Below are positions 1,097 through 53,700 of a DNA stretch of 64,000 nt, piece by piece. The notes beneath the pieces are model-generated. The model was not told the DNA's origin. It ran no database searches and was given only the letters and a program-made list of their open reading frames with translations. Each line of letters opens with the position of its first letter. Position 1 is the first letter of the stretch. The position numbers and the translations under genes are program-made. The stretch covers positions 86,038 to 150,037 of the forward strand of contig CAZVTT010000003.1 in assembly GCA_964629685.1 (NCBI GenBank). Reading direction: 5' to 3'. Source of the DNA: an uncultured Gammaproteobacteria bacterium (lineage in GTDB: Bacteria; Patescibacteriota; Microgenomatia; UBA10105; UBA927).

Positions 1097-1172
1097 TTTT
1101 CCTGACTTTCCCCGTACATATACCCTGTTTTTCGTTTTCCTTTTATCCGTTTTTTCTTGTACAATTGTTTCC

Positions 1173-5689: not shown

Positions 5690-5727
5690 TCCTTTCCTTT
5701 CCCCATCATTCCTGAGTGAATTGTGTG

Positions 5728-29700: not shown

Positions 29701-32700
29701 CGGTACGATTGCCTGCAGTTGATTAAATAAATTGCGCAATTCCGGATTACTCTTATGCAGACGCTCCATAACTTCCAAGGCTTTATCGGGGTTTCTGCTT
29801 AAATAATCCAGGAGGAGTGATGTCACCCGTGCGGGATCCTTTTGAATAGTGGTGCGGTAATCATATTTTAACCACGTTATGTTCATATATGTTGCGGCAT
29901 CCGTCTGCAATATACGGTTAAGTACCCGGCCTACATTCTGTTTTATCCGATTAGCCCCGTCTACCAATATCGTTATCGGATTACCGACTTCCCTGGCCCA
30001 GGTTCCGCTTGCTGCTACTTGCCTGTATGACGCGACCCCTGCTTCTGCTCCGGCTTCCCGGGTAAGTCCGGCAGCTGACTGTGCCAGGAATATAGGCGTC
30101 AACGTCCCGTTGGAAATCCAGGACATAAGATTACGGATTGTTGAAGACGGCATCAGACTGCGGGCTTCATTGGTACGGGCGATGGTCTGATCAAGCTGTA
30201 ACAATACGCCGGTATTATGATCAATCAGTAATACTTTTTGCACCAAATTGAGCGGCACCCGGACAGGCGAAGTCAGCAATGATACGACAGTGGAAACTGC
30301 CTGGAACCATGCTCTCGGGGTGTATACTTTCGCCTGATCTTTGTCCGCAACCTTCCAATTTAGGCGGCCGTTTTCCATATACACCTTAATTCTGGTCGTA
30401 CCGATAGTAACCGTTGCCGGTCTGTTTACCACCACGAATTCCTGCGGCAGAACCGTTTCCGTTACGGTATTGGCGTCTATAGTATCGGCATCCACGTACG
30501 TCAGGGTAATTACGTTCGGACTGGTCGCACGGTTCGCGTCAGCCGGAACATTCCTGCCCGCAGGTGCCACATTAGAAAGTACGAAACTGGAATTGTCCAC
30601 CCGGGTTATCAGTGCATGGGAATCAGCCACACCTTCACCGGCCCGCACCCGTATACCGGCACTCCCGTTCGTACCGATTAACGTACCGGTATCGCGGGTT
30701 AAAGCACTCCGGATTGCGGCAAATACCCGCCCTACTCTCCCGCGTTCTGCCGTGATTTCTGCCGTGTCGGCAATAGGACTACTTACCCCATCCGTAGCCG
30801 GAGTAATACTACCGGGTCGTCGTAACAACGTCGGACGATCATCTTCATTATTCTGCAGGGCAATCCGGCGTGACAGTACTTGGCTCAGTATTTCATCATG
30901 CTTACCCGGTATAGTTAATATCGTTTGTAATGCAGTCTGATATATATCTGCTGCTTCATCCTTATGTGCAGGATCAATCCGCAGCAACAAAACTGCCTGC
31001 AGTTTACGATTCATGGCATCCGTTTCCCCTTCGCGAACGAGAGTTATGACTTCGTTCATCCGGGTCTGTAACTCTCCGGGAAGTACCGTCCGCGCCTGTA
31101 CCCGTTCCTTCTGTTGCCGGAAAGCCGTTTGCAGTCGGGTTACCAAACGCACCTGTAGTGTGGTGGCGACGCCCTTTTGCGCAGCTAACTGCTCAAGCAA
31201 CCTGTCTATTTCCCGCAACACGACATCGTATTGCTCCAATACCGTATCTATCTGGTCAGGTCGATCGTATGTAATCGTGACTTTATCCAAATCCCGAATC
31301 GTGTTTTCAAAATACCCATCAAAATCATAGAAGGTATACGTCTGATTTAATCGACCCTGCAATGTCCGCAGTAACGTAAGATATTGATCGGCAGTTACTT
31401 TCGCCTGCTGTGTGGGTAAAATATCGGAAGCCCGTTCTTCTTCCGATTTAGCTTCATATCGCGCGTCATCTATATCCTGTCGTAACGCTATGAGCACTAA
31501 TTCATAATTGGCTATTCCGTACTCCGTGCGGAGGGTATCCAGCAGTCTGGCCACCGCACCTGTCGGTCGGTTTAACGCGTCAGAGCTCGCTGCCGCAGTA
31601 ACCGGAGTTATCTTCAGTTCATTTGAGAGTTGGTTGTATAACCGTAATACCCCACGCTGATCGGCCGCGTTTGTTAACAAATCCGTAGCTGACTGAATAA
31701 TAAACGACCCGCTGCGCTGATCAATAAACCGGCTAAATACTCTTCCGAGTACTTCTCTGCGGAAATCAAACCAGGTATTTCTGGCCACTACCGCCAAACG
31801 CTGCTGTGTTGTAGCGGGTGTAACCAGCGTCGAATTATTCAGAATTGACTGCAATTCCTGCAGTTGCTGCGAAAGACGGATACGCTCACCTTCCAGCCGT
31901 TGCCGTTCTGCTTCCTGCGCCCGTTCGTCACCTTCCAGTACGCCAAGGATCGCGGAATCCAATAACTTTAACGCCGACTGATGTTTGGCAATAGCATCAG
32001 ATACATCCGCAGTATTTGGCGTTACCCGTGCCTGCTCTCCCTGGACTCTCGCCAATAAATCCATCTGAAACCATGCCTGTCGACTGCTGAATGCATGACC
32101 GTTTAACAATCGGCGCATTTGGGTAACCCACCGCTGCACGAATGGAGCTTGCGCCTGTGAATACAGTCCTTGCGCCCCCCGAATTTTGGTGAAGGCTTCT
32201 ATGGCATCGGTAATCCGGCGGTTCAATACGGAACATCGGGAACATTCCGTATCGTTTATTTGTGCCTGCGGTTGTCCGGCTCTACCGTTAACCGGTTGCA
32301 CCACAGCTTCCGCTTGTCCTTCTCCGATAAACATCACGGTAAAACTTATGTCATCACGGAATCTGCTGTTTGCCGGCAATTCCCCGCGTTTAATCTGATC
32401 CTGGTGGCGTGCACGTACTGCTGCGATAAGTTGGGCTTCCGCAATCTGAGGTGTCCGGGCGTTCGTCAAAATTCTGGCCAGAATCCGTTGTCCCAGCGCG
32501 GGATCCTGGCGGAAGTATTTCAAAAATCCATCCGATGTCAAGAGTACTCTGTCTCCCGATTTGGCTTTGTATGCCGATACTTTCCCGCCATAAAAACTAC
32601 TGCTGCCCAGATAATTCGGGTTTACCGGTGAAGCTGCCTGGTATTGCGGATCACGGGCATAAAACGCCAGCGGATTAAGTACGACGGGATCTATTTCTTT

Positions 32701-35700
32701 AAATGGTGTAGTTCCGCGCAGACGTTGGATCAGCCTACTAACTACGTTTGAGGCAGGCTGGACTGCGTACATTTCGGGATCACCGACCCGCGCTACCAGC
32801 AGACTTCCATCCGGCATTACGGTGGTACCGATTATGGTCGTAAACACCTGTTTATCCGGATCACTCCTTCTTCTTTCCGCTACAAACTGTACCATGGCAG
32901 CCTGCAGACGCACATCTATGGCGTTCTGCAAATAGGCTTGAGCTTCCTGTACGGTTGCCATGTTTCTGGCAAATTCCAGCTCGCGCAGTAAAAATTCTGC
33001 CGCAAATTGCGCACCGTCACGCAGACCGTTTTCGTTCGAACCGGACACGCCGTCTGCAACCACCATACTTTGTCCCTGCGTCAGCGCCACATCCTGTCCG
33101 AGCGGGGAGAATTTTGTATGCCCCGCTATAATCTGACCGTTTCCGACATTTCCACGGATAACCTTTTCTGTTTGCACCGGAGTTTCCGTCTGCGATACCC
33201 TGCTTATGGGAAGTATTCCCGTGTATTCTTTCGTATCCGCGGCGGAAATTTTCCCGTTGGCTATCGCATACAACGGTTTTCTGGTTCCCCGCTCCAATAA
33301 CCAGGCATTTCCACTCGTGGTACTTCCGGCGGTAAATACGTAATACGCATCACCTATTTGTATAGCATCACCATCCTGAAGATATGTCCGACCTCTGCCC
33401 TTTATATTTACGTCATTTACGAGTGTTCCGTTTGTCGAATTTGTATCTTCCAGATAGTATCCTTCACTATCAAAACCCAGCCTGGCGTGATCGCGGGATA
33501 CATTGGTATTGTTTATAACAATCCGCTCTCCGGTTCCGGCATTCCTGCCAAACGTAATGGCCCATGATCGATCAGCTGGTTGTTGCGGAACCACCCGGGC
33601 AACAGCTCCCTGAGCAGATATGCTATATTCCTGACTCCCGTTGGATTGTGTCAGTAGTACCTGTCCGTCTTCGTCATGGGAGAAAATAAGTATCGCGTCA
33701 TCACCAAACGAAATACTGTCACCGTCATGCAATACCCGTAACTGTCCGACTGCTAACGGATATCCGTTCACTGTAGTACGATTTGTCGCTCCGTCATCAA
33801 TAATACCGACACTGCCGTCAGCAGACTGAATTAACCGGGCATGAAGTCGTGATACGGTTGCACCCGGAACGGCAATATCCACCGTATTCCCGTCCTGCAA
33901 TCTCCCGATAGTACGTTCCCAGGTGGGACCTGCTTGTACCGGTGCCGCAATTTCTCCCAAGCTCAGTCCGGTAATAACTCTGCCGTTTACATCAAAAAGC
34001 TGCTGGATTCCTTCAGTATCCCGGCCGACAACCAATGTCACTTCACCCAACTGTACCTGATCACCTTCAGTAAGATTTTGCTGTGTTACTTTTGTACCGT
34101 TGATCAGCACGCCATTTAATGCACCGGAATCGCGTATGGCAATAACGTTTCCGGATGCATCACGGGAAATGTACGCATGTAATCGGGATACGGAGGCTCC
34201 GGCAATATTACCGTTCTGTTCACCCCGTCCGATTCCTTCCGTGGTCAATTCCTGTCCGAGAGCCACACGTGTACCGCTAAACACCGGTGCAGTCACCGGA
34301 ACCGGTGCACGGGATTGTGCTGTGCGTAGATCGAATATGGTCGTTGCATCATCAGCGATACTGCGCGAACGGGATACCACCGGTTGTTCCGTCCGTTGAT
34401 CCGCCGGCAATTCCGCCAGTGTATCTACCGCAATATCCGTTCTGGCTGTGCCGTACACTAATCCGATACTGGTAGTGGTGGCAATCACCCGGTAGCCGAC
34501 CGTTCCGACCATCAATTCATCACCAACCTGCAGCTCAACCGGAGTATTCCGTGGCGTGCGGTACGGCGTTCCGTTCCTGATAATGACACTACTTACGGGA
34601 TGACTGTCAGTAATAACTAAGCGATCATCATTACGTGACAATACCGTCTGCTCCTTTTCATTCGGACTGGCCTGCAGAACCAGAATTTCATTTTCACTCA
34701 ACGTGATTACGGATCTGTCTATTGTCGTCCGTTGAGCTAAAAAGCCGTTAAATGTATCTGGCGCGTCGTACACGTTCTGATCCAGACGGTTGTAAACCAA
34801 CCGTTGCTGTGAACTATCCAACTGATCAAACGGTATAAAATCTGCATCAACGGTATCAAACCCTTCATACAGCAATGCGGATGTCCGGTTGTTTCCGTCT
34901 ATGACCACAAATCTGCCGCTGTCGCGTTCATACGTTATCGTCACCGGTACGTCGGTTCTATAGGTATCATCACCATAAATTCCTGCCCGCGCCCGGAAGA
35001 ATGCATCTGCCCGCACGCCATCTTCGAGTGGGGTTAATTCCGAAATCGTGAAGCGATACCGTCCGGCAGTAAGAGTCTGAGCATTTGCACTGGTAACGGA
35101 ATTTACCTGCCGCGTCTGCGTTGAATTTACGGGTGATACCGCCGGATTACCCATTACAATTTGCAGCAATCCGTTTACATCGGTGGTCACATATACCACC
35201 GTTTGGTCAGATAATGCGTTTACTTCTCCGGCAATTGTGCCGAAGAATACCTGATCTCCTGATTGCAACGCGACAGGTGAACCATTGGTTACGGCAAGAA
35301 TTGTTCCGTCTGCCCGCCGGATAGATGTGCCGTACGAAGAACCTTTCCCGGAATTGCCCAGGTCGCGGACAAATATGGTATTACCCTCTCTGGTAAATGC
35401 TGCATGACGGCTGGATACCTTTGATCCGTAGACCGGTATATCGCCGCGTATTGCCGTCCGGTGATCCACCCGTCCTGCCACTACTTCTCCGCCGAGCCTA
35501 CCCTGACTCCCTGAAGGAATATAGATTCCGCGGGCCTGCTGACCGTTCTGTGTTTGTACCGGAATAAATGCGCCGGGAGTAGTATCTGCAATATAGCCCA
35601 CGACTCCTTCCTGGGTGTCGGCTGTCACATCTGTCGGCGCCAATAATTCGGTTGGTGCAGCGGCTATAACAGGTAATGGACTTGTCGGGCCATCCGCTTC

Positions 35701-38700
35701 CCTACGCATCTGATACACAATTTCATATGCTCTGCGCCGCAGTGCTTCGTTCACCGTAGCTCTGTTCCAGTTTGAAACGGACGGATATTGTGCAGTGTAC
35801 TGCCTGCGCAAATCCTCATATACCCGATCATATATCCGTTGTATGCGGGTAATAGCGCTGCCGCGGAATATTCGGCTTAACTGCGCGGAAGTAGGAATAT
35901 TTCCTTTTTCTGCGGCTACCACATCCGGGGATGAAAGTGCAGCCACATTCTTTTGTATTTCCGCCCGTTGAGCCGCAATCTGTACTCTGAAATATTCCTG
36001 CCGGATTAACGCGAATGCAATATCAAACCGTTGCGCGAGCGGAATTCTCTGAATAGTACTATTTGTTCTGTTATACCACTTGGTTCCGCTTGTGTAGACC
36101 AGGTAAGACGGAATACTGGACCAGTTCCCTTCAAATCCCTGCGGATTCGGATTTCGGTATACGAGGTAGTCCAGGCTGTAATCGTCTTTCACATACACTT
36201 TAACCGTTCCGGATTCCGGAGGTGTTCCCTGAGCAAGTCCTATCCGTTCTGCTAAGTACGCGGCTTTAGCCGTAACAAATGCATCCAGATCGGCAGTATC
36301 CAGCAGATTACCGATTAATGGCGTATACAACCTGCGCATTATTCCGGCGATAGCATCCTGTGTTACTGCCTGAGCCAGGGAAACTTGTTCGAGTACCGCT
36401 TCGTCATCCACTTTGGAATTTATTTCTATTAAACGAGTCACAAATTCGTTGGCTGCCATTCGGGAAACAATTTCCCTGACGCCGTTTGTCCTGTCTGCAT
36501 CCGACCAGATAGATGTGGCAAGTAACTCTTCTTCGACCTGACGTATCAGTTCGTTTGTATCCAGCACTGTTCCGTTAACCGCACCACGGATTACGGCATC
36601 TCCCACCCTACCGAACGCGGCCGACTGGACTTGTGTCGCCAATGCTGCCCGTTGTGTTCTGACTCTGGAATACATCTCCAACGCAACGGGAATTAATGCC
36701 TGGCGGGTTTCGGAAGCCAATGCCAGCCGTTCATCACGCGTCAGCAGTACTCCGCCGAGTCGGAACGCTCCGGATCGTACCCGCAGACTCCCCATCCAAT
36801 CTGTAACGGCAGATGCCACTGCGGCAGTATCGGTTGGACTTATATTCCGCGCAATCAGATACGCCATCAGGTTCCGTTGCATTTCCGGTGTTGTAACAGC
36901 AGCCGATATTGCCGCATCCCATTCGCGCCGTTGCGCTTCCCGCAGTGCATCGCGATGGAGCTCGCGGGCACGTGCGTTTACCGCTTTTCTCACTGCCGGT
37001 CTTCTTCTCAATGCAGGGTTCACCGTTCCCAGTAAATACTGTTCCGTCTCTTCCAGTTCAGAATATGAATCCAGTCGCAACTGATTCGTTGTGGCATTTG
37101 CCGGTATCGCCCGCAACGTACTCACCGTATCTTCAAATCTGTCCGCCGGCAACGTTACCGTTTGCAGTCGTGCTTCGGTCTGGCTTACATTCTCACCTGT
37201 TACGATTTCCGGAGCAGTTAATGCCGCAGGCTTTTCTGCCGTCGTCGTCTGATCTTCTCCTGCGGTAGTCGTGGTTACGGTAGTAGCTATCGTGGCAGCC
37301 GGACCTACTCTTCCCGCCCACGATCGTAATGCATCATAGAATAACAAAGTAGCCGTATATGGTATATTCCCACCGGGCACCGGCATTAAGAATGGATAAA
37401 CAAAACGAGTGAGCAGATATTTACCGCGATTTTGGGAGAATGAAACATTGAGTGTACCGCTGAATATACCGCTTTGTTGCGTACTGAATATATTTATCGC
37501 TCCCGCGAGTCGCTGCATCGGAGTAAGCGTCGGATTGGCTTTCAGGAAATCCCTGATTTCTGCAAATACCGGGAGTACGTCAGTACTTCCGCGTACCAGA
37601 ATGTCATAGGCGTCGACGGCAATGGTATAAAGTTTCAGTGGTGCATAAAACGGTGCGATTGGTCCCAGTAACTGACTTCCTGCCGGACCGAACTGTGCCA
37701 TGACCAGTTCCATCTGACCGACAATATCTTTAGGAAGTTGTCTGGTAACAAAGTACAACGGACTATATATATCCGGATTAATAAGTGCAAAAAGTCCGCC
37801 GCGTCGTTGGGTAAATGCCGCCAACGGACGTAAAAATTCCGGAACCCGTGCGAGTCTGGCTTCCGTCGTCAACTTAAGCTGTGCTTTTTCTGCTTCCGCT
37901 TCCTGCTTTTTCTGATTTTGATACAACGCGATTGCCGGATTTTGTACTGTCCGCAATCCCTGCCAGCCACGATTTAATTCGTAGGCGTATTCACCCGGAC
38001 GGGTTACGGCAAATCTGGCAAATCTGATTCCGTCATACACTAAGAAGTACGGATTCAGTATCCGGCTCCCTGCCCAGGTCAGTGTTTGTAGCGCTACGGC
38101 ACCGGTATTCAGTGGCCGCGGATTGCCGACGGCAAGTGGAGTTGCGTTAAAGACATAATTCACCAATCCGAAGAGTCCCCGTCCGCCTCGGGTATCGGTT
38201 CCGGCTCCTAAGCGCTGCAATATCCATCGCTGCAGCGCCGGCATGGCTTCAATTCGTGCTGCGATAGCGGCCTGTCGGGCAATTAACTCATCAACTTCAA
38301 TCTGCGCGGCAGATTTTGGAGCCGGCGGTTTTACCGGTTGATTGTCGGGTACAGGTGCTGCCACCTGATTTGCCTGGGGATCTGTCAGGTTTTCAAACGG
38401 TAAAATCGCCTGCACCTCCGCAGCAACTTCAGGAAGCGGATCGATCAACGGATCACCCGTTTGACTTATTCCTCCCACTGATTCCGGAGGAACTATGACA
38501 TCACTTTCAGCAACATCCGGTTGGGTTTGTGCGTCAGCTATTACCGCCCCCGCTTCTTCTACTGTGGTCTGAACCAATGTCGGTACTGTGGGAAGCTGCA
38601 CACCTCCGATTACTGTCGTAGCGGGTTGTGTACGCCCGGTAACCAGAGACAAAAATTGAAATAGTGCATTTTGTCTGGCCAGACGCTGCGCTGGCGTTAA

Positions 38701-41700
38701 CTGCTGAACCGTAGCTCCTTGTCCACCGACCGATTGATCCGCAGTAATGGGGATTGCTGCCACCGGTGGTACTACAACCACAGGAGCCTGCTGGTTAAAT
38801 TGACTCACAGCGGTTTGTGCTGATTCAAGCGCTAATTCGTTTGCTCTCGTTCTGACCGCCTGCTGAATCTGTTCATAGCCACGATATTGTGGCGTAACAA
38901 GTGTAGTAAGTGCTGTTTCCACGGGAGTTACCAATTGTGTTGGCAGTTGTACTTGATCAATCGGTATACCCTGAGCAAGCTGCGTTAAATAATACGATAC
39001 TATCGTGTCAACTGCAGGGGTATTCAACGCAGTAATCCGACGAACTTCTGCAGAAATTTCCTCCTGTGTCGGACCGGCAGGAAGTTGTGCTACCGGTGCG
39101 CTGTTTACCGGTGTAAATCCGGGAAGTCGAACTTGTGCTATATCACTATACCCATCCGCGGTGAAACCTACAGCAGTCGGATCCGTGATCACTTCTGTTC
39201 TTCCGTCCGCGTACACAACCCGGAACTCCTGCTGTTCAGATTCGTCTCGTTGCAATCGCAGCTGCATAAATCCTGCACGTGGTAACGAGGCAAATATATA
39301 TGTTCTTCCTGCATAGGTAACTCTGTATAATTCCCCTAATTTTTCAGGAGTATTTAAACCTTGGCGAGGATATGTAGTCATCAGTTCAACACGATAATCG
39401 GGAGATAGCAGCTCCGCCTGCATGCCCATAGCTCTCGCAAAGGCTACCGATTGCAAATTATGGGGGATAAATACTCCATCCTGATAAACCCCGCTAATAT
39501 ATGTAGAATATCGATTGCCATTTTCATATTCATCAAAAACTAAAGCACCATTAACGGCCTCATCCCCAATCTGAAGATCGGACAATGCGGACGCTATAAC
39601 TGAAGGAAGCTGTGAAATATTTTCAACATCTGACACCGGTACATCTACATATTTTCCATTTTGAATAGTCCTTAACGTAACGCGCCCTACAATGTGCAGT
39701 TGTGCAACATTTTGTTGTATTTGGGTTAACTCAGGTTCATTTACTCCCAATGAAATTAATATCTCCCTAGCTGCATCACCTTCATTACTAATCTCCTGTA
39801 CTGTAGACAATACCCGAACAATATCAACATATCTCATAGCCAATATTCTGGAATCCCCCCGAGCTATAGCGGCCTCAAACTCTTCAAATGCAGTTAATAA
39901 CTTAGTGCCAGTATTTGATTGCATTACTTTAGGCGTTATCGGATATCTTCTTAATATCGGCAAAAATCTTGAGGTGGGAACACTGTATTGTGTAAGTGCA
40001 CGGGTCACTTGTTCAGCTCGGCTTTTCTTCCCCTGATCAACAAGTGCGTCAACTAACGCTTGAATAAAAGTGTTTTGTACTATTCTGGAAGCGAGTGATG
40101 GTTGGTCATCCGCATTTATTTCCGGCTCTACGGGCGCTTGTGCCTGAACAATTTCTACTGCACCATCAGCATCATTATCAGTAACAACCACTCTTCTATC
40201 TTCTCCAATTTCCACCGTATCGCTTGGGGCAATTACGGCAGTATCCGTAACGGGGCTATCATTCACCATCAGCGGCTCTGCCGCCTGTTCTTCCGGTGGT
40301 CGTTGATCTGCAATCACCGTTTCGCCGGTCTCATTTTGGGTAATCACGATCGCCGGAACGTTTGGAGCATCCGATTCCGTAATCTCCCGCAGTTGAGTTG
40401 TGTTTGAGTCTACAATCACTGCTGTATCCGCATCGTCTACTTCTACGGATACATTGGAAACCGGTACCGGCAAATCTGACTGAGTTTGCGTATTCGTATC
40501 CGATTGATCCGTTGGGGCGGATTCTTCAGATGATTGGGAACCGGTATCCACTATTGCTCCCGGTGACTCCGGTCTGATGATGGTTACCACTGGTGCGGGA
40601 ATTATACGTTGAATAATAGGGGTACTTCCCAAGGTTTGGCGCATATCATTCATTGCCAACTGTACCCGGGCAGACAATGGTGTTTGGGTTGCCAAACCCA
40701 ACTGTCCGTCTGCATTCCGTACTACCGTAACCGGACGCGTTTCAGAAAGAATAATATCCCCTGGCTGTAACGTTACCGACGTTTCCCGGACTTCCAATAT
40801 CTGCCCGTTGCGCAGAATATGTGCCGGTATGGCCTGACCACCGACCCCCACGTTCGCCGTAAATTGCAACCCGTTGGTAATTGTCTGCACCCGTCCTCCG
40901 GTTACCCGGTACGGCTGATTTGCGTCGACGGCGATAAACGGTAATCGCTGTACTGTCGGGGTAGATTCTGCCGGCGCCTGTCGCACAAATATGCCCGCCA
41001 GGAAACCGCCGATACCCGTCGGTGCGGTTTGCTGCGCTCGCAGATCCGTAAGACTTTGGGCTAACGCGATGCGCTGTTGATCTGTTTGTTCCAATCGCTG
41101 TTGAATATCCCGATACATCACCAATGTGGAAAATGCAGCCGGATCGTTTACCCGAATAACCGATTGGGTACCGCGAAGTACCAGTCCGTCACGGGTTATC
41201 CGATTAAATGCCTCAAGCGACAATTGACCTGTAGGCATTTCCATCCCCTCAGGTAATAAATAGGTAGTTCTGCCCGGTACAATCTGACCGCGTACCACGT
41301 CGCGCCCCAAAGCATCAAAACTGATTATCTGTTGAGACGGATCACGGACGAACACCGGTGTCGTATTTATCATGAGCGCGTCACCCCTACGGATACCGCC
41401 GGATAAAGCACCGATAGTTGTCCTGGTAAGCTGTCCCTGACTTTCCAGTACGGTGATCTGGTCCCGCAGCGCCAATTGTTGTGTCTGCAACGGTCCGGGA
41501 ATATTCCGGAGTGTTTCCAACTCATCCTGCAGTATTCTGATGGTCTGCTGCGTATTTCTTGCCTGGAAAATAGTATTTAGAACCGGAACTGTCGAGAATG
41601 CTGGCTGCGGCAGTTGTGCTAACCGGGTTTGAACCGCAAGCGGAAACGCCGTAACATTGGCAAGTCCACTCCTTCTGGTTGCCTGCTCTGCGATCACTTG

Positions 41701-44700
41701 TGATTGTTGAACCTGTTCCTGTGACGCCGTATATGCCCGGGTAATATCCAATACCTGCGTGTTGTTCCCTTGGGGTATACGTAATTCATTCATCACCCGC
41801 GGATCAATGGACGTCTGAATTCTACCCACTAAATCAGTTAATGTTCTGGCGGAATTTAACGGTTGAGCTGCACCTGTCTGCTGGTTCGTCGGAAGAATAT
41901 CGGCAAGTTCGAATCGCTCCCGCGCGACATCAACCCTGTTCGTATATACTTCCCGTGCCGCCGGTGTTAAGCGTTCTATACCGGTTATTCCCCGGAGAAA
42001 TCCCTGTGCCCGATTCACGGAATTCAATACGTCTTGAGCGCCGGTAATTTCCCTAAAGCCGATGGTGGAATCCAAGTCAGTCGTTCGTCGGTATTCTGTC
42101 CGTAAGTTATCAAAATACTCGGTCGTTTGTCGGTTCGGATCTACACCGAGCAATCGTTCCAGCGCTGTCGGTTCTCGACGGGAAGCAAGTTCCATTTCAT
42201 TTATAACGGAAAGCGGCAAATTATCGGCTACCCGTTTGGCAGCTGCGAGTTCATTCCGTTGAGTGAGCAACGCTTCGTTCCGGGCGAAAAAGTCACGTGC
42301 TGTGGCAATATTCGCTAACTCGGCAGCCGGTACGTTCATACCCACCACTTCTAACCGTGAATACTCTCCGCTGCGGCCACGGTCACGACCGACGGCCTGC
42401 AGGAATGTGGTCTGGGTTGTATCCGTTCCCACGACGACGGTAAACCGTTCGGTTGATCGTGTATACAGATCCGTACCGTAATGAGAACCGTATTCGATTA
42501 CTGTCAGCAATGTTCTTTGACTATTACTGCCGTTCCGGTACGTTTCCATCGTGGCATCAACGCTTCGCAAATCATTGAGACGGATTTCTGTACCGTCTGC
42601 CCGGATAAGCCGGTGTTCACCACTGGGACTCACCACCAAAATATCGGCATCAGGTTGGGCACGGGACGCCTGTTCCCGAATCGTCCGCGACGATTGTTCT
42701 CCGGTAGCTATAACAACTATTTCAATATTTCCCCGTCGACCCTGCGTAATGGCAGTTCCGATATTTGCTGCATCTGCCACCCGGAATTCTGCAGGTTTGT
42801 GCGCAGCACCATCACTCAATACATAGTCCACCTGCCCGACAGGACTGGCATTCAGGGAAATACCATGTACTTTTTCAAATTGATTCCGGACATATTCCGG
42901 CGTTCCGGTAAATCCGAATATTTCCGAAAAATTCTGCATGAACAGCGCGTAATTTGTTCCTTTTGCCGTGCTGGTAACACTCACATCACCCAGATTTACC
43001 TCTACACGCCTGCCGATGCCTTCCAGCATCGCACCGCCTACATACTCAAGCGCCAACGCATCAAATGAACGGGATGGTGTCCGTTCTGTCGGGGCTGCTT
43101 CGTCGCGCAATCCGACCCGTTCACGACCTTCGCGGGTAACAACGCCAAAATCCACATCTACCCGTTTTCCGAGCATGTCCACTATACTTCCGGCAGCAGA
43201 ACGGGCTTCCGTAAAGTTCCCACGCAGGGTATTGGCGACTGATTCCCCAAGTCCGAAATTGTCTCCGTTCTGAAATCGTACGAGTGCTTCCTGACGCTGT
43301 GCTTCAGTGCCGGTAAATATTCTGTCACGGGCAGCTTCAGCGGCAGCTCTCTGTGACGGTTCCATTCTGCTTATCGCGACATCAAACATTTCGGTATATA
43401 ACCTATTCTGTGCAGCCTGATCTACAATCACGCCGCGCCCTTCACGGATCTCTATTCCCAGGGAACTTCTGGCACCGACAATATCACCCAATCTGGCCAG
43501 CTCAATAGCGCGTTGCACCGACGTACTGCGCGATATGACGGATTCAAACGTAGTAATAAATGTCCTACCCTGTTCATTCTGAGAAAGCACAATCCGTTCA
43601 CCCTCGCTGATGATGTAATCCACGTCAAGTCGTAAAGAGAGTTGGGCTTCGTCGGCAACCAACACCGCACCTTGTGCCTTTTCCATTACCGCTCTGCCCT
43701 GCTCGCCTTTTATTGATTCGTAGATAACGTCCTTCGTGGTCAGGAAAATTCTCCCTTGACCGACTTCCGCTGCCGTCCGCTGTGCGCCATCCAATAAAAC
43801 GACTCGGTTCCCTAAGGCTTCGGTTAACTGCTGTTCCACACGTACGCGCTGCTCATTGGAAAGTTGCGAGAACGATCGGACACCTTCCGGCATTTCTGCA
43901 AACTGTGTCGCGAAATTAAATAAATCGTTACTGGTGTTAAATAATCCGAATACGTCTTTCCCGGTCATTTCCGCTTTTAACGAAATAATTGCGGGAATAA
44001 TGGTTGATGATTTACCCACACCGGTAATAGCTTCATAGAGCGTTCCGACAGGCCCATCTGTGCGTTGGCCGATATTCAGCATGGCATCGACAATGAGTCG
44101 TTGCTGATTAAACTCCACGGATTCAAAACCACGTACACCCTGCAATTTTCCGCCACTGGTTTCTATCAGTCGCTGTTCTACGATTGCTAATTCACGGTTT
44201 ACTCTGTTTATCTGTGTCTGCACGTCTGCCGTCACTGCCGTGTTTGCCACTACACGGGTAGATGTCACCAACGTATCCCGCGGTAGCGTTCCGGTTATCT
44301 GACTATTCTCCAGTACATATAACGACCGGCCTTCTGCCAGTATCTCCACCCGTTGACCACCACTGAATTCCAGTACCATTCGTCCCTCACGGGTACCGAT
44401 TGCATCACGCAGTTCTGTCGTCGTACGGATTTCCCGGGGTAAATTCAGCCGTTCACCGCCTATTTCTATACCCGTCACCGCTGCACGGGTTCCGTCAAAC
44501 CCACGGATTTCACTGCGTACTTCTACAATCGGTCTTCCCTCGGGAGTGGTTTGCTGGAAACCTTCCTGTACTGCGCGATAGGCATCGACTTGGCTTTGAC
44601 CACGACCAACCAGCCGACCGAGAGCATTCGGACTCTCCGCACTACCAAGTATTCCATCAGCAATTCTTTGCGTTACTGACCGCTGTGTGTTTACCTGGAC

Positions 44701-47700
44701 CGGTGCAATTTCAGCACGCGGAATGGCAGTGGCAACGATCTGCACCTGCCCGTTCCCGACTGTCCCGACGACCTGATTGTTATTCACCAATCTGTCACCG
44801 GTCTCAAATACAAAATTCGCTTCAACCGGTATCCGTTGTACGGTCCCGTTCACCGTTCGTTCTACCACTAAATTCGGCGGAACCGTTTGTCCTGCCTGGG
44901 TTTGCAGTTGTAACGTTCCATTGGTGTTTACCACGGCTATTTCCTGTCCCTGGCCAACCGGGACTCTGGTCGGTAAACTCGCTCCTTGTGGCACCGGTTG
45001 CGCGACGTTAGCTGGAGGCCCGGAGACTTGAACTCGTGTATTCCCAGGAGCATATGCCGTTGCAGTGTTAACGACACCTGTTTCTCCGGTAGCTAATCGG
45101 GTGGGCGCAGCGAGTATGGCTTCATTACCGGAACGGGTTACGTAATCACTTGGTCTGAGTTCGTATGATTGACCACGTTCCATCACAATGGTCGTTCTGG
45201 TACCGTTTTCTGTTTGGGTCACCAGTCTAACTTCACCGGTTGTTCCTTCGGCTACCCGAACCCTGGCTACTTCGCCTTCCCGATATACTTCCAGAACCTG
45301 CTGATTCCTGCCCTCTCCGTATGTTAATGTCGTCGGCCGTTCTGCAGTTCCCGCTATTTCCAACGCGGTAGATCTGTCTACCCGACTACTTTGTGTACGG
45401 TATAACTGTATACCGAGTCCGATAGGATCTGACACCAACTGTCCGCCACGTGCCAGTAATGCGGTAACACCACCTTGTTCGTAAAACTGTGTCGTAGCGC
45501 GGCCTTCTGCACGGCCGAGCGCAGTATCGGGTCGAAGGAAATGGGTAAACGGACTTGCAAGCTGTAACGCTAATGCACTGCCGAGTGTATGGCCTATCCT
45601 GTCGGCATAACAGGTCGATTCCTGTTCCTGATCATCTATAATGCCTTCACCGGATAAATCACGGCAACCGGAGTTGCCCACTATCGTTTCCATGACACCC
45701 TTCCCGACAGCAGCACCGAGCGGCAGAACAATGTGTTCACCGATGGTCTTAAATTCCACATACCCGATAATGGAGCTTTGAAGTGCCTGAGTCGCACCCA
45801 ACCGTGCACCCGCACGACCGACTACTCCTTCGGATAATAACCCCGCAGATCCGAGTGAAATGCCCCGCGCGAGAGATTGAATTGGTGCCAAGCCGAAGTA
45901 TATGTCTCCGGCGGCACTCATACCGTATTCCATCGTGGTAGCTATTACGTTCCCAATATCATTTTGACCTGAAAATATTTCAGACCTCGCGAGAATGTCA
46001 CAACCCCGTGAACCGCCTACAAAACAGACAAAATCTATAGCAGTAGACACATTGCTTTCCGTAAGTGGACCTGCGGTATTGCCGCCGGTAATCCATCCGG
46101 CAATATTCTGTCCGGTAATAAAGTCTAAACTGGAACGGCTGGCATCACCTGCCAATGCGCCCAACATTTCTATCCGGTATCCAAGGTCAAGCGCATCTCC
46201 GACGATAGGCACCCATCCGTACGTCGTTTGTACCAACGCACCGACGGTTCCACCCAACGCCTGGAATGTATGGTCAATCGCAGTGGAAATCTGCAGATTC
46301 CCTAAGTCGCTGCCGACTGCAGAGATGTTCGTATACGCCCGTTCAATCCGACCTACCTGTTGCGCCGTTCCGTCCAATCCTAATAATGCAAAATTGCTGG
46401 CAAGAAAAACACGCTGGGCAATATTCCCGCCGTGATCGCCGGTTAACGCCAAATTCGCACCCATGGACCGCTCATACAGATCCCGAGCCCCATCCTCTCC
46501 TCCTAACGCATACGCAAACCCTACCAGAGGAGCTGCAATTAAATTATCCAATCCGCCATCGTCCGCCATACTGAATGCCATATTGGCTGCCACAAAATTC
46601 CGGTTAAAATTCTGGGCGCCTTCGATTCCCATAATGTCGATGTAGGCACCGGCCATAAACCCGGCCAGACCGCCTTCATCGCGCGCCGCATCAGCGGCCT
46701 GACTCCGTAACTCACGCTCCCGTGCAGCGATATCAATATTTATTTCATACTGTGCCAGAGACCGTTCCCCGCGTACGAATTCCATGCCGTATAAATCATC
46801 CGCCTGAGCCTGAACAACCAATTTTTGCTGATCGAGTGACCAGGATGTACCGGTGTTGATCATGGCTGCCACCATTTCCCGGTCACCGAACATGTGCATA
46901 TAGCCTTCGGGATCACTCAAATAGTCTTCCCACACGCCACCATTGTCGAACGCACCGATAGTTCCGTCACCCGTACACTGATATCCCGCTGTATTCAACA
47001 TTTCCTGATAGTTCGGACAAATGGCACCATCGCAACTGTAATCACAGGCAATAGCCCCTAGTCGCTCGCGCGTGGCAGGATCGTCATGTAACGCCTGCAT
47101 AAACGCCTGACTTTGCGTCAAACGCACCTGCATAGTATTTACGGACATATCTGCCGAATACATCCCCTGATAACTGACCCAATTGCAGGTCGTTCCGTGA
47201 CAGACATATACTTCCATTACCTGTTCCGGGGAATCACTTAATCCGTTATCGATATTACCGGGATCAAAAATATACATACTGGTTGTTCTGACTCCACCGT
47301 CAGACCAGTGGAATCCGACACTGCCGCCTGTCAGTAATGCACCCTGTTCCTGAGCTGTTAGCGTCCTGGGGACAAACTCCGCCAGTTCTTCAAAACTGGA
47401 AACCGTCACTACCCGACCGCGGGGATTTTGCGGAGAAAACACCGTACATTGCATTTCTGCATTCGTCTGTGTTTGAGTCGACGTATTGCAGGTGACATAA
47501 CTATTGCCGTTTTCTACCCAATCGTCAGCAAACTCGCCGGAAAACGTTTCCTGATATTGTCTGGTTAACGGATCTAACTGTGTTTTAATGCTATACGCAA
47601 CCTGTTGGCACTCGGCAGCAAATCCGGTTGTTCCGGACTGCGTACACATTTCCGAACCGGCAAGCACCGTATTCACCCGCGTGTCTATTTCCTGCTGACG

Positions 47701-50700
47701 TAATTCCAGACAAGCGGTATCGTCAATTTCGCATTGTCTTGCACTCTGATACACATCAATGATGCCGGATTGCAACGTCATGAACTGATTAAAGCGTTCC
47801 ACTTCCTGCCCCGCGTTAGCAGCCAACTCTTGCCTGCTCTCACACGTAACGTCAGTCCTGACACAATTCTGACCGGTGGTAATTAAGCTATTTAACGTAG
47901 TTTCCGCGGTGGCAAGTCGTGCTTCTGCCGCAGCGCACGCACCTTCTGCGTTACGGTCACAGGACAGCACTCCCAAACGGGCTTCCTGATATTCCGTCAG
48001 CGCTCCGCTCACATCTCCGGAATATTCATATAAACTGGATAGCGTTGTAATTTGACGCAGCGTCTGATTCTCCATACGGGTAGCTTCTGCATGACACTCT
48101 TCAACATTCGCTGCCCGCTGACAGACGTTTGCTTCCGTCAGGTTGAGTGTATCTCGCGCCAACTCGAGACATCGCTGTAATTCGGTATCGTTCTGGCTGT
48201 TTCTGGCCATACAGCCTTGAGCACTTTGGTAATTTGACTGATTGGCGACCGTCAGTTCAAATCCGGCTACAATATTCAGACACCTATTTGTTGTGCCCTG
48301 ATTCGCAGCACATTCACCCTGCGCGGAAAATTGCTGTAGGTTGTTGGAATAGGCGTTCTGACAGATGGATAAAGTCGCGTCACTGTTGGCGTTCTGTACG
48401 CAATTTGTATACTGCTCACGGTACTCAATAAGTTGGTCCTGTTGTCTGGCCACAAACGCATACTGCTGTAATGACGTACCCACCTGTAACCCCGTGCGCG
48501 CGACCGTCAAACGGCAGGTTTCTTCATCACTGGATTCATCACATAATCTGGCTTGTTGGGCGGAAATCTGACTTCGGGCTGTTTCAATACAGGCATCCTG
48601 TGCTTCTTTTGTAGACTGACGGTCAATACAGTTTTGCGCCATGCGGGTATATGAATCCGTCCGTGAACTTAAGTCATAACTCACTAACACATCCGCGCAG
48701 CGTTGCGGTGATCTTTCGCATTCGGTAGTCGATTCCAGTCTCCCCACCACACAGGCACGTCTGCTTTCTTCATCTTGAGCTTTTATGGCACAGCGTTCGT
48801 ACTCTTCACTGTTATAAATATCCCGGATCTGTTCCTGTGTCCTGAGTGCGAATGCGTATTGGTTCAAAGACGTGGTTGTTTGGCTGATCAGCTGACCGGC
48901 GTTCTGTTCACAGGTTTTCTGATCACCGGCTTGCGCACAATAATCCGAAATATAATCTGCCATCACCGTCCGTACTGCCGCGACACATCTGGCGTTTCGG
49001 GACTGCGCCGTTGCGTCTCCGAATGAATTCGTGTCTCCCGAACCAGAAGTATTTTCTATACAGGATTCCGAACCGGCAATACTTCCCTGTAATGCGAGGT
49101 TTATCTGATACCCTGCTACCACGTCGCGACACGCATTGGTATTTTTTGTATTTGCTTTACACTCTTCATTTGTCGTTGCATAATTTCGGATTGCGCTGTC
49201 ACGTTGCTGTAAACAGATTTCGTCAGGGGTGCTCCCGGCAGCACAGGTTTCATATGCATCCGCAATCAGATCAAGCCGGGACTGTTGGCGGGTAGAAAAT
49301 GCATATTCATTCAGTGAAGTATTTACCTGTTGCCACGATCTGCGGGCTTGCTGCTCACAGGCAGCCACGTCTGCAGCGGTGGCACATAAATCTTTTACTT
49401 CTTTGTCGTTTAATCCCTGCGTTACCGAAATACACCGTGCCTGTGTTTCCGCTGCCGTCGCTCCGTTATCTGCCGCTGAAGCCACACAGCTTTGTCCGGC
49501 AGTTGCCCACCGTTCCAGTGCCGCATTCACCTGGTAGTTTGCGGCCAGATCCTGACACTTCCGGGTGCTGCCGGCATTCTCCGCACATTCTCCCTGACTG
49601 GCAAAATTGGTAAACGAACTCCTCCGCGCGTTCTCACATACCACTAACGGTTGTCCGGTTTCCACACAAGCGTCGTAATCATCTGAAATTTCGGTTAATG
49701 CAGTTTGCTGTCTAATAACAAACGAATATTCGGTAAGTTGAGTCTGTGTTTGGCGGATTGTTCTGTTGGCATCATTTGTACACGATTCAACATCTGCCGC
49801 GTTTGCACAATACCGGCTAACCCGCTCACTCATTACCGTTTGTACTGCATCGACACACCGCTTTTGCTGTACTGCGTCTGCACCAGCCCGTTCGATACAT
49901 GATTGGGAGCCAGCCGTACTGCCGCGTAAACTGGTACTAACCTGATAACTTGCCAAAATATTCTGACACGCCGCAGTATTCCCGGAATTCGCTGCACATT
50001 CACCACTTGATACCAATGTTCTCCACTCCGCATCACGCTGCCCCTCACAGACACTACCGGGAATACCCTGGTTTACGCACTCGTTCACATCATCACCAAT
50101 TTCACTAATTCTTGCCTGAGTCCGAACATTAAATGCGTAGGTAGTTAACTGGCGCTGAGTTTGTCTTACGGAGGATTCCGCTTCAGAACGGCAGGCTTGC
50201 TGATCAGCTGCATTCCGGCATATTTCTGCTATGCGGGCATTCATGACTGTTTCGACCGCATCCACACAGCGCTCTTGTTGGCCGGCATCGGATTCCGCCC
50301 GTTCAATACAGGATTGGGATCCGGTGGAACTTCCCCGTAAAGATGCATTGATCTGATAACTCGCCAGAATATTCTGACACGTTGCAGTTCTTCCGGCATT
50401 TTCCGCACATTCGCCGGTGGAAACAACGCTCCGCCAGGACGCGTTACGTTGACTTTCGCAAATACTTGTTGGTATTCCCTGGCTTACACAGGTATTCAGT
50501 TGTGTATTTATTTCATCTATGCGTTCTTGCGTCCGGACATTAAACGCATATGATGTGAGTTGTGACTGTGTTCGTGATACCGCAAGAGCAGCTTCCTGAC
50601 GACAATTCTGCTCATCTGCTGCGTTACGACAATAATCGTCAATCCGCTCATCCATTACCGTTCGTACCGCATCGACACAGCGCTCTTGTTGCGCAGCATC

Positions 50701-53700
50701 TGTTCCCGCCCGTTCTATACAGGATTGGGATCCGGCAGTACTTCCGCGGAGACTTGTCGTAATCTGATAATTTACCAATAGACTCTGACAGGTGTTTCTA
50801 TTTTGCGCTTGTGCACATTCTCCACCGGATACCAACCTATTCCATGCCGTATCCCGTTGACTTTCACAAACGCTTCCGGGAATACCCTGATTTACGCAGG
50901 TATTAACCTGCTCACCTATTTCGTTGATTTGCGTCTGAATTCGGACATTAAATGCATAGTCAGTTAATCGTGATTGAGACTGAATTACGGATGTTGTTCC
51001 TTGCCTCCGACAGGCAGCAACGTCTGCTGCGTTAGCACAGAATTGAGTTATTCTGTCATTCATCACTGTCTGCACCGCAGCCACACAGCGCTCTTGTTGC
51101 GCAGCATCATCTCCGGCCCGTTCGATACATGCTTGTGAGCCGGCCGTACTGGCCCGCAGACTCGTATTTACCTGATAACCCGCTAATATGTTCCGACAGG
51201 TTGCATTATTGTCTTCCTCCGCACATTCTCCGGAATTTACTAAGCTTCTCCATGCTGCATTTCGCTCACTTTCACAAATACTTCCCGGTATCCCCTGATT
51301 TATGCAGGTATTCACGCGTTCGCCAATTTCTGCTATCTGAGTTTGTGTCCTGACGGTGAACGCGTATTCGTTTAACTGAGACTGAGTGCGGATAACGGAT
51401 ATATTTGCCTGAGAACGACAATTATTCTGATCTGCAGCATTCCGGCAAATCTCTGCGATCCGCTCGTCCATTACGGTATCCACCGCCGCTATACATCGCT
51501 CTTGTTGGGCTGCATCAGAACCAGCCCGTTCAATACAGGATTGGGATCCCGCCGTACTCCCCCGCAGACTCGTACTAACCTGGTAACTTGCCAGTATGTT
51601 TTGACACGTGGCGGTATTTCCTGAAGTTGCTGCGCATTCTCCGCTCGATACCAACGTCCTCCAGGCAGCGTCCCTTTGACTCTCACATATACTCCCGGGA
51701 ATTCCTTGTCGCACACATTCGTTAAGTTCATCTCCTATTTCCGTTATTTGCGTTTGCGTACGAACGTTAAATGCGTATTGATTCAATTGCGTTTGCGTAC
51801 GGGTTACGGAAATATTGGATTGTGATATACAGGCTGTTTGATCTGCAGCGTTCCGACAAATTTCATCAATCCGATCATTCATAACGGTCTCAACGGCGTC
51901 TATACACCGCTGCTGCTGAGCCACATCCGTTCCAGCCCGCTCTATACAAGATTGCGATCCTGCTGTGCTTCCCCTCAAACTCGTACTTACCTGATAACTT
52001 GCCAATAAATTTCGGCAGGCAGCAGTATTGTCTGAATTGGCAGCACATTCGCCGGTAGAAACAAGCGTACGCCAGGCGGCATCGCGTTGACTTTCACAAA
52101 TACTTCCGGGAATTCCCTGTCGCACACATTCATTTACATCCTGGCCGATTTGATCGATTTGTGTCTGAGTCCTGACGTTAAATGCGTACTCCTCAAGTTG
52201 TGTCTGTGTCTGATTCACTGATCGGGTTGCCTGTGATCTACACGTGGATTGATCTGCAGCATTTCGGCAGATATCTGCAATTCGGTCGTTCATCACAGTC
52301 TCTACCGCGTCAACACACCGCTGTTGCTGTACTGCATCAGCTCCTGCCCGCTCGATACAGGACTGTGAACCTGCCGTACTGCCACGAAGACTGGTATTTA
52401 CCTGATAATTTGCCAAAACATTTTGGCAGGTATCGGCATTTCGCACTTCCGCGCATTCACCTGTAGTTAGTAGCGTTCTCCAGGCGGTGTCACGTATACC
52501 TTCACAGACACTGCCCGGAATACCCTGATTTACACACGTATTTACCTGTTCACCTATTTCGCTGATCTGTGTTTGGGTCCGTACGGTAAATGCATATGAA
52601 TTAAGCTGCGTTTGTGTTTGAGATACTGCGGCAAGGCCCTGAGACCGACAACCGCTCTGATCTGCCGCGTTACGGCAAATATCGTCGATCCTATCGCTCA
52701 TAACCGTGCGGACTGCATCCACGCAGCGCTCTTGCTGCGCAACGTCGTCACCGGCTCTTTCAATACAGGATTGGGAGCCAGCCGTACTGCCGCGTAAGCT
52801 GGTGCTAACCTGATAGTTTGCTAAAACATTTTGGCAGGTAGCGGTATTCCCTGAATTCGCAGCACATTCACCGCTGGTTATCAGCGTGCGCCAGGCGGCA
52901 TCGCGCTGACTTTCACAAATACTGCCCGGAATTCCCTGATTTACACAGGTGTTTATCTGCTCGCCTATGTCGGCTATTTGTGTCTGCGTTCTCACGGTGA
53001 AGGCATATTGATTGAGCTGTGTCTGTGCTCTGGTAACGGATAAATTCGCCTGAGATCGGCACTCATCCTGATCTGCTGCATTCCGGCAAATATCTGCAAT
53101 CCGCTCATCCATTACGGTATCCACCGCCGCTACACATCGCTCTTGCTGAGCCACATCAGCTCCCGCACGTTCTATACACGATTGGGACCCTGCCGTACTG
53201 CCGCGTAAACTGGTATTTACCTGATAATTCGCCAATAGATTCTGGCAGTTAGCGGTGTTGGCGGAATTTGCAGCACATTCTCCGGAAGTTACAATATTTC
53301 TCCAGGATTGATCCCGTTGGCTCTCGCATATACTCCCGGGTATTCCCTGACCGATACAGGTATTCATTTGTTCACTCGCCTGTTCAATTTGCGTTTGCGT
53401 CCTGACGGAAAACGCATATGCTGTTAAATCATTCTGCGTTTGCGTTAAGGAACGGTTTGCCTGCGTCCGACATGCTGTCTGATCTGCCGCGTTACGGCAA
53501 ACTTCTGAAACCCGCTCATTCATGACGGTTTCAACCGCTGCCACACACCGCTCCTGTTGAGCGACATCAGTTCCGGCCCGTTCTATGCATGATTGGGATC
53601 CAGCAGTACTTCCGCGCAGACTGGCGCTAACCTGATACCCTGCTAATATATTTTGGCAAGTTGCTGTGTTCCCTGAATTTGCAGCGCATTCGCCGGTGGT

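Follow-up and report, generated by a model that had tools for sequence, protein, structure and literature searches.

What does an ATPase do inside a protein of 17,564 amino acids? The question is raised by the 64,000-nucleotide stretch of contig CAZVTT010000003.1 analysed here (the window), in which one uninterrupted open reading frame (ORF) of 17,564 codons (5728..58422, minus strand, listed start GTG at 58422) encodes a giant protein. The same ORF contains the whole of a segment (42343-44040, minus strand; amino acids (aa) ~4795-5360) that an initial annotation had flagged as a SecA-like motor in the middle of the chain. The SecA-like module is present in a single copy and lies at 27-31% of the chain length, well short of the middle. 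All features of the giant protein described below are on the minus strand. As modelled with AlphaFold2, the segment has the build of SecA, with a first nucleotide-binding domain (NBD1) split by a domain resembling the preprotein cross-linking domain (PPXD), a second nucleotide-binding domain (NBD2) and a helical tail specific to its own family. A SecA-type identity of the module is, in our judgement, probable. The fuller statement, that this SecA-build ATPase acts as a built-in translocation motor, takes in function as well, and we consider it evenly poised.

Architecture of the embedded ATPase

The motif strings quoted in the initial annotation are all present and colinear in the one ORF. The first part of RecA-like domain 1 (NBD1a, aa 4772-4935; 43618..44109) contains the QxxVILDA motif, Walker A AITGVGKSS (aa 4798-4806, with GVGKS at 4801-4805 in the correct-frame translation; 44005-44031), TTKDVIYES (aa 4895-4903; 43714-43740) and motif II, ADEAQ (aa 4923-4927, with DEAQ at 4924-4927; 43642-43656), which continues as LSLRLDVDYIISEG to aa 4941. 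The second part of the same domain (NBD1b, aa 5157-5190; 42853..42954) contains TNYALFMQNFSEIFGFTGTPEYVRNQFEKVHGI and carries motif III, FTGTP (aa 5171-5175; 42898-42912), within FGFTGTPE (aa 5169-5176); TGTP itself is aa 5172-5175 (42898-42909). RecA-like domain 2 (NBD2, aa 5191-5369; 42316..42852) supplies motif V, YGSHYGTDL (aa 5311-5319; 42466-42492), and motif VI, QAVGRDRGRSG (aa 5342-5352, with QAVGRDRG at 5342-5349; 42367-42399). The set of superfamily 2 (SF2) ATPase motifs in the window copy, namely Walker A, DEAQ, TGTP and QxxGRDRG, is complete and colinear, and the module has the features by which SF2 is defined: motifs I, II, III and VI with arginine fingers, on two tandem RecA-like folds. 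What is conserved in the family as a whole is a compact module of about 800 aa, spanning aa ~4770-5545. Blastp mapping adds an N-terminal extension (aa 4577-4771; 44110..44694) that is shared with no relatives beyond the closest ones, P0001-P0004.

Exhaustive searching of 1.84 billion cluster representatives with HMMER returned only 27 relatives (E 1.9e-148 to 1e-4), nearly all of them proteins of 1,500-8,000 aa or short fragments. In an alignment of 16 family members (A1), overall identity is only 19-45%. The Gly and Lys of Walker A are nonetheless invariant across these sequences, the Asp and Glu of motif II are at least 90% conserved, the Thr and Pro of motif III are invariant or nearly so (P426, in alignment numbering, is invariant), and the Gln and both Arg of motif VI never vary (Q593, R597 and R599, same numbering). 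Because the catalytic residues are near-invariant despite such low overall identity, we infer purifying selection on catalysis; judged by its residues, the module is a catalytically intact, active SF2-superfamily ATPase. The extreme divergence of the family from all characterised families might suggest instead a structural relic, in which the SF2 fold has been kept as a scaffold or nucleotide sensor and performs no mechanical work. We give this only a very slight chance, as the residues of Walker A and of motifs II, III and VI have barely changed among relatives so dissimilar elsewhere. In one subfamily (P0012, P0014, P0015, P0016, P0022, P0002 and P0010), motif VI reads GRDRCxxGC in place of GRDRGxxG, and these two Cys, directly after the arginine fingers, are the sole cysteines in the module. 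The module of the window protein contains none.

The feature that sets the module apart is the PPXD-like insertion (aa 4936-5156; 42955..43617), which separates DEAQ from TGTP by 247 aa. The initial annotation had suggested looking for an element of this kind, and one is present, between motifs II and III. Our AlphaFold2 model covers aa 4750-5420 (predicted local distance difference test score (pLDDT) 79.7; predicted template-modelling score 0.74), and within it the ~220 aa of the insertion are folded with a pLDDT of 88.9. In the model, the chain runs from the motif II strand into an outgoing strand, YIISEGERIV, through a mixed helix/hairpin domain consisting in order of helices, a hairpin, a helical sub-bundle, a second hairpin and a helix bearing a conserved motif, and then back along a returning strand to the strand of motif III. 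The motif on that helix, TGRxYSxxxDxLAYExxG, is conserved (43033-43083). The accessory domain is therefore modelled as entering NBD1 between motifs II and III on a two-strand stem, which among SF2 proteins is the hallmark of the SecA PPXD. The accessory domains of XPD/DinG, UvrB, RIG-I and Ski2-like proteins are located elsewhere: in Ski2-like/Hel308 and RIG-I-like enzymes, a winged helix and ratchet or a Hel2i domain follows or interrupts domain 2 and leaves the motif II-III loop of domain 1 free, and the FeS and Arch insertions of XPD/DinG likewise occupy other positions than this loop. The PPXD of SecA has about 155 aa, and the extra length of the insertion would be the added helical sub-bundle. 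The order of secondary-structure elements through the insertion is presumably the same as in the SecA PPXD.

This arrangement bears directly on the main alternative, namely that the module belongs to the ordinary SF2 helicases or translocases of nucleic acids (Ski2-, RIG-I- or ResIII-like), gained a helical insertion in RecA domain 1 independently and acts on RNA or DNA. The resemblance to SecA would then be convergent or a product of shared SF2 ancestry, and the module would be one of many enzymatic modules in the chain. We regard such an origin as unlikely. An insertion placed exactly between motifs II and III is not what it would predict, given that the other top-scoring SF2 families carry theirs elsewhere.

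Structure comparison points the same way. When the AlphaFold2 model was searched against the PDB with Foldseek, as the initial annotation had proposed, B. subtilis SecA came first (1tf5, E 2.5e-10; also 3jv2), and SecA structures ranked ahead of LGP2, DinG and XPD; the best template-modelling score among the SecA matches was 0.43, for 2ibm. SecA was top in both fold-search programs and also for the isolated insertion, which a helicase origin does not readily explain. The margins are small. The structural scores of Hel308/Hjm, XPD, DinG and LGP2 are nearly equal to those of SecA, which weighs against a SecA-type reading and in favour of the helicase alternative.

At the level of individual motifs, a low-stringency hhalign path keeps the order of SecA as it passes from Walker A across the PPXD and on to motif III. 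From the second half of the insertion as far as motif III, the family has a G.DFG hairpin, TGRxYSxxxDxLAYExxG and then VSxxSxxTNYxRFLxxFxEIxGFTGTPxxvxxQFxxxyGI, and its SecA counterpart comprises DxDYIVxDGEVxIVDEFTGR and then GRRWSDGLHQAVEAKEG. GRxYS-x11-G of the family aligns with SecA GRRWSDGLHQAVEAKEG, and TNYxRFLxxFxEIxGFTGTP aligns with the neighbourhood of SecA motif III. A search for the pattern GR.[WYF]S-x11-G, in which K or Q was allowed for R and Q for S, found it at this place in 12/16 family members and in the PPXD of 3/13 SecAs; the rest of the 92 kb of giant-protein sequence did not contain it. Furthermore, a hidden Markov model of SecA residues 215-425 had its four best matches in the 92 kb at the position flanking motif III (10/17 proteins overall). 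Taken singly, these scores are insignificant (hhalign E 0.18 for NBD1b; HMMER E 0.01-8). Because of this, and because the proteins are homologous to each other, the colinear matches count as one suggestive observation and not as ten. As such, SecA-specific motifs in the right order on either side of motif III are a further point that a helicase origin would have to accommodate.

One match was rejected. With the insertion alone, hhalign against SecA aligned DVDYIISEG off-register with the PPXD hairpin DVDYIVKDGEV (E 0.0087, Prob 4.6%). We take this as chance because both the model and the colinear path favour pairing the segment with SecA PLIISG, which is also how the initial annotation had paired its LIISG-like box.

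Sequence profiles, the tail and the helicase alternative

The evidence from profile libraries weighs against a SecA-type reading, and a part of it speaks for the helicase alternative. For the window copy itself, there was no match in Pfam, NCBIfam or PADLOC, and none by phmmer against PDB sequences. Across the window copy and the 16 members of A1, the SecA models SecA_DEAD (PF07517), SecA_PP_bind (PF01043) and the SecA P-loop PF21090 gave no match at E <= 1, and NCBIfam and PADLOC returned nothing for the module. The Pfam models that did match the 16 members were ResIII (12/16) and DEAD (10/16, best E 1.9e-10); in those ten relatives, DEAD covers the first RecA domain only. Searched against PDB sequences, the A1 profile found the Ski2-like SLH1 (1e-8), RIG-I (6e-5) and Brr2, and reached SecA (2ipc) only at E 1.2, with profile positions 376-415 aligned to SecA 370-409. 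The SLH1, RIG-I and Brr2 matches are confined to the first RecA domain (profile positions 25-157). Comparison of A1 by hhalign with single E. coli sequences did not discriminate between families (UvrB 59%, SecA 44%, DinG 25%, RhlE 14%). Against an alignment of 13 SecA sequences, collected by tblastn from plasmid-borne secA and secA2 genes, the first RecA domain matched with Prob 95.2% (E 2.7e-8); on the sequence level, this shows homology within SF2 and not specificity for SecA.

Two more specific helicase identities fit the module poorly. DEAD-box RNA helicases have a Q motif, DEAD, SAT and HRIGRxGR on a compact core without insertion between motifs II and III. The module instead has DEAQ as motif II, TGTP as motif III, QxxGRDRG as motif VI and 247 aa between II and III. 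An FeS helicase of the XPD/DinG type was ruled out because the module, with 0 Cys, cannot hold an FeS cluster.

The initial annotation had held that the motifs align with SecA motif by motif rather than with generic helicases. At the level of sequence this does not hold, with SecA_DEAD in 0/16 members, ResIII in 12 and DEAD in 10; what stands is the SecA-like motor as a build, in the ~220-aa insertion between motifs II and III. What the annotation said would count against it has come about only by half, since helicase profiles match better than SecA profiles yet a SecA-specific element is present.

The region after motif VI is a further point against a full equation with SecA, and is again consistent with a helicase. 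The family-conserved C-terminal extension (aa 5370-5545; 41788..42315) forms a ~170-aa tail that opens, in the AlphaFold2 model, with one helix exceeding 40 residues and goes on to the conserved blocks W..ts.lD, NR.q.F and PLs.a. Hhalign of this tail against full-length SecA gave Prob 0.5%, and no scaffold, wing or two-helix finger was found; a SecA scaffold or wing domain, tried as an identity for the tail, was dropped for want of any hhalign signal. The 340 aa after motif VI have no similarity to SecA residues 600-901, and there is no Cys in this region; neither the wing nor the C-terminal Zn/SecB-binding tail of SecA was detected. The module falls outside canonical SecA while sharing the architecture of the SecA motor.

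Placement of the motor in the giant chain

The sole strongly hydrophobic segment of the window protein is an N-terminal signal anchor at aa 62-80. From the sequence of the N-terminus, Met44 (58293) and not the GTG at 58422 is probably the real start; from Met44, the protein would begin MKSSTIHTRHTAVAGQVQ, then ILPLVLLLAFASVTVLLIS (58183-58293), which resembles a signal anchor, and continues downstream into Pro/Thr linkers and Cys-rich modules. The composition then switches sharply, from a Cys-rich part (aa 81-4271; 45612-58182) to a Cys-poor part (aa 4272-17564; 5731-45611). Counted in 500-aa bins, Cys content is 5-8% as far as aa 3500 and 2.8% over aa 3501-4000; 233 of the 251 Cys lie before aa 4300, and only 18 fall in the other 13,264 aa, for the most part in CxxC pairs (8727/8730, 10357/10360, 10743/10746, 11524/11529 and 12317/12320 among the pairs of the C-terminal part). 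At the boundary lies a Gly/Ala-rich, amphipathic and weakly hydrophobic stretch (aa ~3950-4250; 45673-46575; e.g. GGLDNLIAAPLVGFAYALGG and IVLPLGAAVGKGVMETIVG), which may be a membrane-inserting or translocation segment, and the motor starts about 500 aa past it.

The relatives present a clearer version of the same layout. By Cys content and a crude Kyte-Doolittle scan, the signal anchor gives way to a Cys-rich part (3.5-7%), after which come a second transmembrane segment (TM2), a part with 0.0% Cys that contains the motor, and often a third transmembrane segment (TM3). The motor lies 650-900 aa past TM2, which occupies the place equivalent to the Gly/Ala-rich stretch. P0015 has a VanY peptidoglycan peptidase domain after TM3. 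Because of the parity of the transmembrane segments and the extracytoplasmic VanY beyond TM3 in P0015, we place the motor of the relatives on the cytoplasmic face. Additionally, blastp identifies the motor module as the sole region common to the window protein and its relatives, save for a match of aa 43-179 to P0002. A nucleic-acid enzyme would hardly be expected as the single element conserved among membrane-anchored giants that are otherwise unrelated.

A mechanism on the SecA model can be proposed. The PPXD-like domain and NBD2 would form a clamp that grips unfolded polypeptide rather than nucleic acid, ATP hydrolysis would move the gripped polypeptide as in SecA, and the module, built into the chain close to the membrane, would most likely help parts of its own giant polypeptide, or further copies of it, across. 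The self-threading or cargo unfolding raised in the initial annotation is speculative. Three observations in the window protein do not sit easily with the proposed mechanism. Near the motor there is no strong transmembrane segment in a crude Kyte-Doolittle scan, only weakly hydrophobic ones. The Cys-rich part, which is presumably exported, precedes the motor in the chain and is therefore synthesised earlier. Finally, the 13,000 aa that bear the motor are almost free of Cys, as are three putatively exported neighbours (0%), against 1.15% in the cytoplasmic iPGM. Judged from Cys content in a tiny sample of six neighbour proteins, the motor itself may leave the cell.

These observations admit a different site of action. 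The Cys-rich ~4,000 aa could bind the surface of a target cell and the Gly/Ala region insert in its membrane, whereupon the motor, which comes before any other large domain after that region, would draw on host ATP and pull in or unfold a Cys-free effector chain of ~12,000 aa. The distribution of Cys along the chain, the Cys contents of the putatively exported neighbours and of iPGM, and the lack of a strong transmembrane segment past the signal anchor would all fit. So would the AvrB_AvrC, FHA and HATPase_c domains downstream of the motor and the origin of the relatives in episymbiotic Patescibacteria. We nevertheless think work in the cytoplasm of a host quite improbable. Delivery systems of this type are not known, SecA drives chains away from itself and has no established pulling mode, and the clear TM2 and TM3 around the motor of the relatives fit a resident membrane protein. 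Furthermore, only six neighbour proteins underlie the Cys argument, and the export of an unfolded chain of 17,564 aa would itself be left unexplained. In its boldest form, this idea puts the motor at the head of an effector chain that delivers itself: the Gly/Ala segment would breach the membrane of a host bacterium, and the ATPase would fold in the host cytoplasm and reel in ~12,000 residues, including the FHA, HATPase_c and AvrB-like domains, with host ATP. The chance of this is slim; were it true, the cargo would bring along the motor for its own import.

The other domains of the giant protein were detected with Pfam. In the Cys-free part are at least five FHA stretches, the best at aa 8289-8357 (33352-33558) and 10586-10632 (26527-26667), a HATPase_c domain (aa 12020-12112; 22087-22365) and a domain like the type III effectors AvrB_AvrC (aa 13995-14082; 16177-16440; E 6.9e-8). 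An actin-like ALP_N match in the Cys-rich region (aa 2890-2945; 49588-49755; E 7.9e-11) is doubtful and may be an artefact of repeats or composition, as no single stretch passes alone. The neighbouring genes, among them iPGM, an M23/LysM peptidase and an NPCBM protein, are chromosomal. Cys accounts for 0% of the NPCBM protein (1173-3137), the M23/LysM peptidase (59693-60769) and the CarboxypepD_reg protein (62478-63887), versus 1.15% of iPGM (60944-62506), and it looks as though cysteine is excluded from the exported proteins of the source organism.

A rare family and its relation to known systems

Five further loci of the family came from genome and metagenome contigs scanned with the three closest sequences as queries. 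The same queries found no relatives on viral contigs, and for this reason a phage origin was dropped. A word-indexed protein search, both with the domain and with A1, gave no matches, although relatives exist. Where the source of a relative is named, it is usually a metagenome-assembled genome (MAG) of Patescibacteria or Gottesmanbacteria, with one Nanoarchaeota and one Gammaproteobacteria label. The members in question, P0023 (MEA3429776.1) and L006 (CAYHHA010000003.1), come from MAGs so labelled, which could reflect mis-binning or transfer between ultra-small symbionts. In a Gottesmanbacteria MAG, a relative of 3,899 aa (L007, 1019-12718) ends shortly after the motor, and a same-strand ORF of 1,809 aa (12642-18071) overlaps it by about 77 nt; from the sequence, these two ORFs possibly represent a single longer gene that a frameshift has interrupted. 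Overall, the family defined by the module is rare and very diverged, and it is almost confined to giant, membrane-anchored proteins from ultra-small bacteria of the Patescibacteria type.

Hardly any of the proteins longer than 10,000 aa in ultra-small, host-dependent bacteria have been characterised, and how such chains come to be placed in or across the membrane is the question at stake here. The presence of the module in Patescibacteria-type giants, together with a Pfam-detectable version in Omnitrophota, suggests a general need of giant proteins for a polypeptide motor of their own, whether acquired separately or descended from one ancient source. Because profile libraries miss the window family, surveys of SecA-like domains in giant proteins will undercount them. 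As the module is compact and has clear catalytic residues, the motor idea can be tested directly by biochemistry.

Set beside canonical SecA (B. subtilis 1TF5; E. coli 2FSF/3BXZ) and SecA2 (4UAQ), the module likewise has two RecA-like domains, a full motif set and an insertion between motifs II and III. SecA is also the best structural match for both the whole module and the insertion, with similar surroundings of motif III and a GRxΦS...G helix. The differences are equally plain: motif II is DEAQ/DEAH in the module and DEVD in SecA, motif III is TGTP and not TGTA, the insertion reaches about 220 aa, and no SecA model of Pfam matches. SecA is, moreover, a free protein of ~900 aa, whereas the module is embedded in one of 17,564 aa. 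A second embedded example is found on a Legionella geestiana plasmid (L021, NZ_CP041715.1, 13.8 kb), where a 2,948-aa hypothetical protein (coding sequence 453-9296) contains a clear SecA-like NBD1-PPXD-NBD2 that matches the SecA alignment at 99.9% in hhalign. An attempt to use this domain as a bridge failed, as it has no detectable similarity to the window family, and this too tells against a SecA-type identity.

A close parallel is provided by other giant proteins. Divergent SecA_DEAD and preprotein-binding domains have been reported in most full-length giant proteins of Omnitrophota and in some of Actinobacteriota (West-Roberts et al. 2023, 10.1101/2023.11.21.568195), and because of this precedent the rarity claimed in the initial annotation, which had called a motor of this kind unusual, was overstated. 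These embedded domains lack scaffold and wing, the genomes that encode them also encode a normal SecA, and the authors proposed a role in the giant protein's own export (10.1101/2023.11.21.568195). A 2026 survey of Omnitrophota again found a cluster with PF07517 architecture (10.64898/2026.06.07.730766). Like the domains of West-Roberts et al., the window module is one SecA-type motor with a PPXD-like domain and no detected scaffold or wing, inside a protein of more than 10,000 aa from an ultra-small, host-dependent bacterium; in its relatives, the crude Kyte-Doolittle scan places transmembrane segments in the vicinity of the motor. By the published descriptions, those domains are set apart in being detectable with Pfam, whereas ours is invisible to Pfam, NCBIfam and PADLOC. 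The lineages also differ, with Omnitrophota and Actinobacteriota on one side and Patescibacteria, for the named relatives, on the other, and the 27 representatives form a family of their own. The window module is thus a more diverged variant of the published embedded SecA-like motors, from a different ultra-small lineage.

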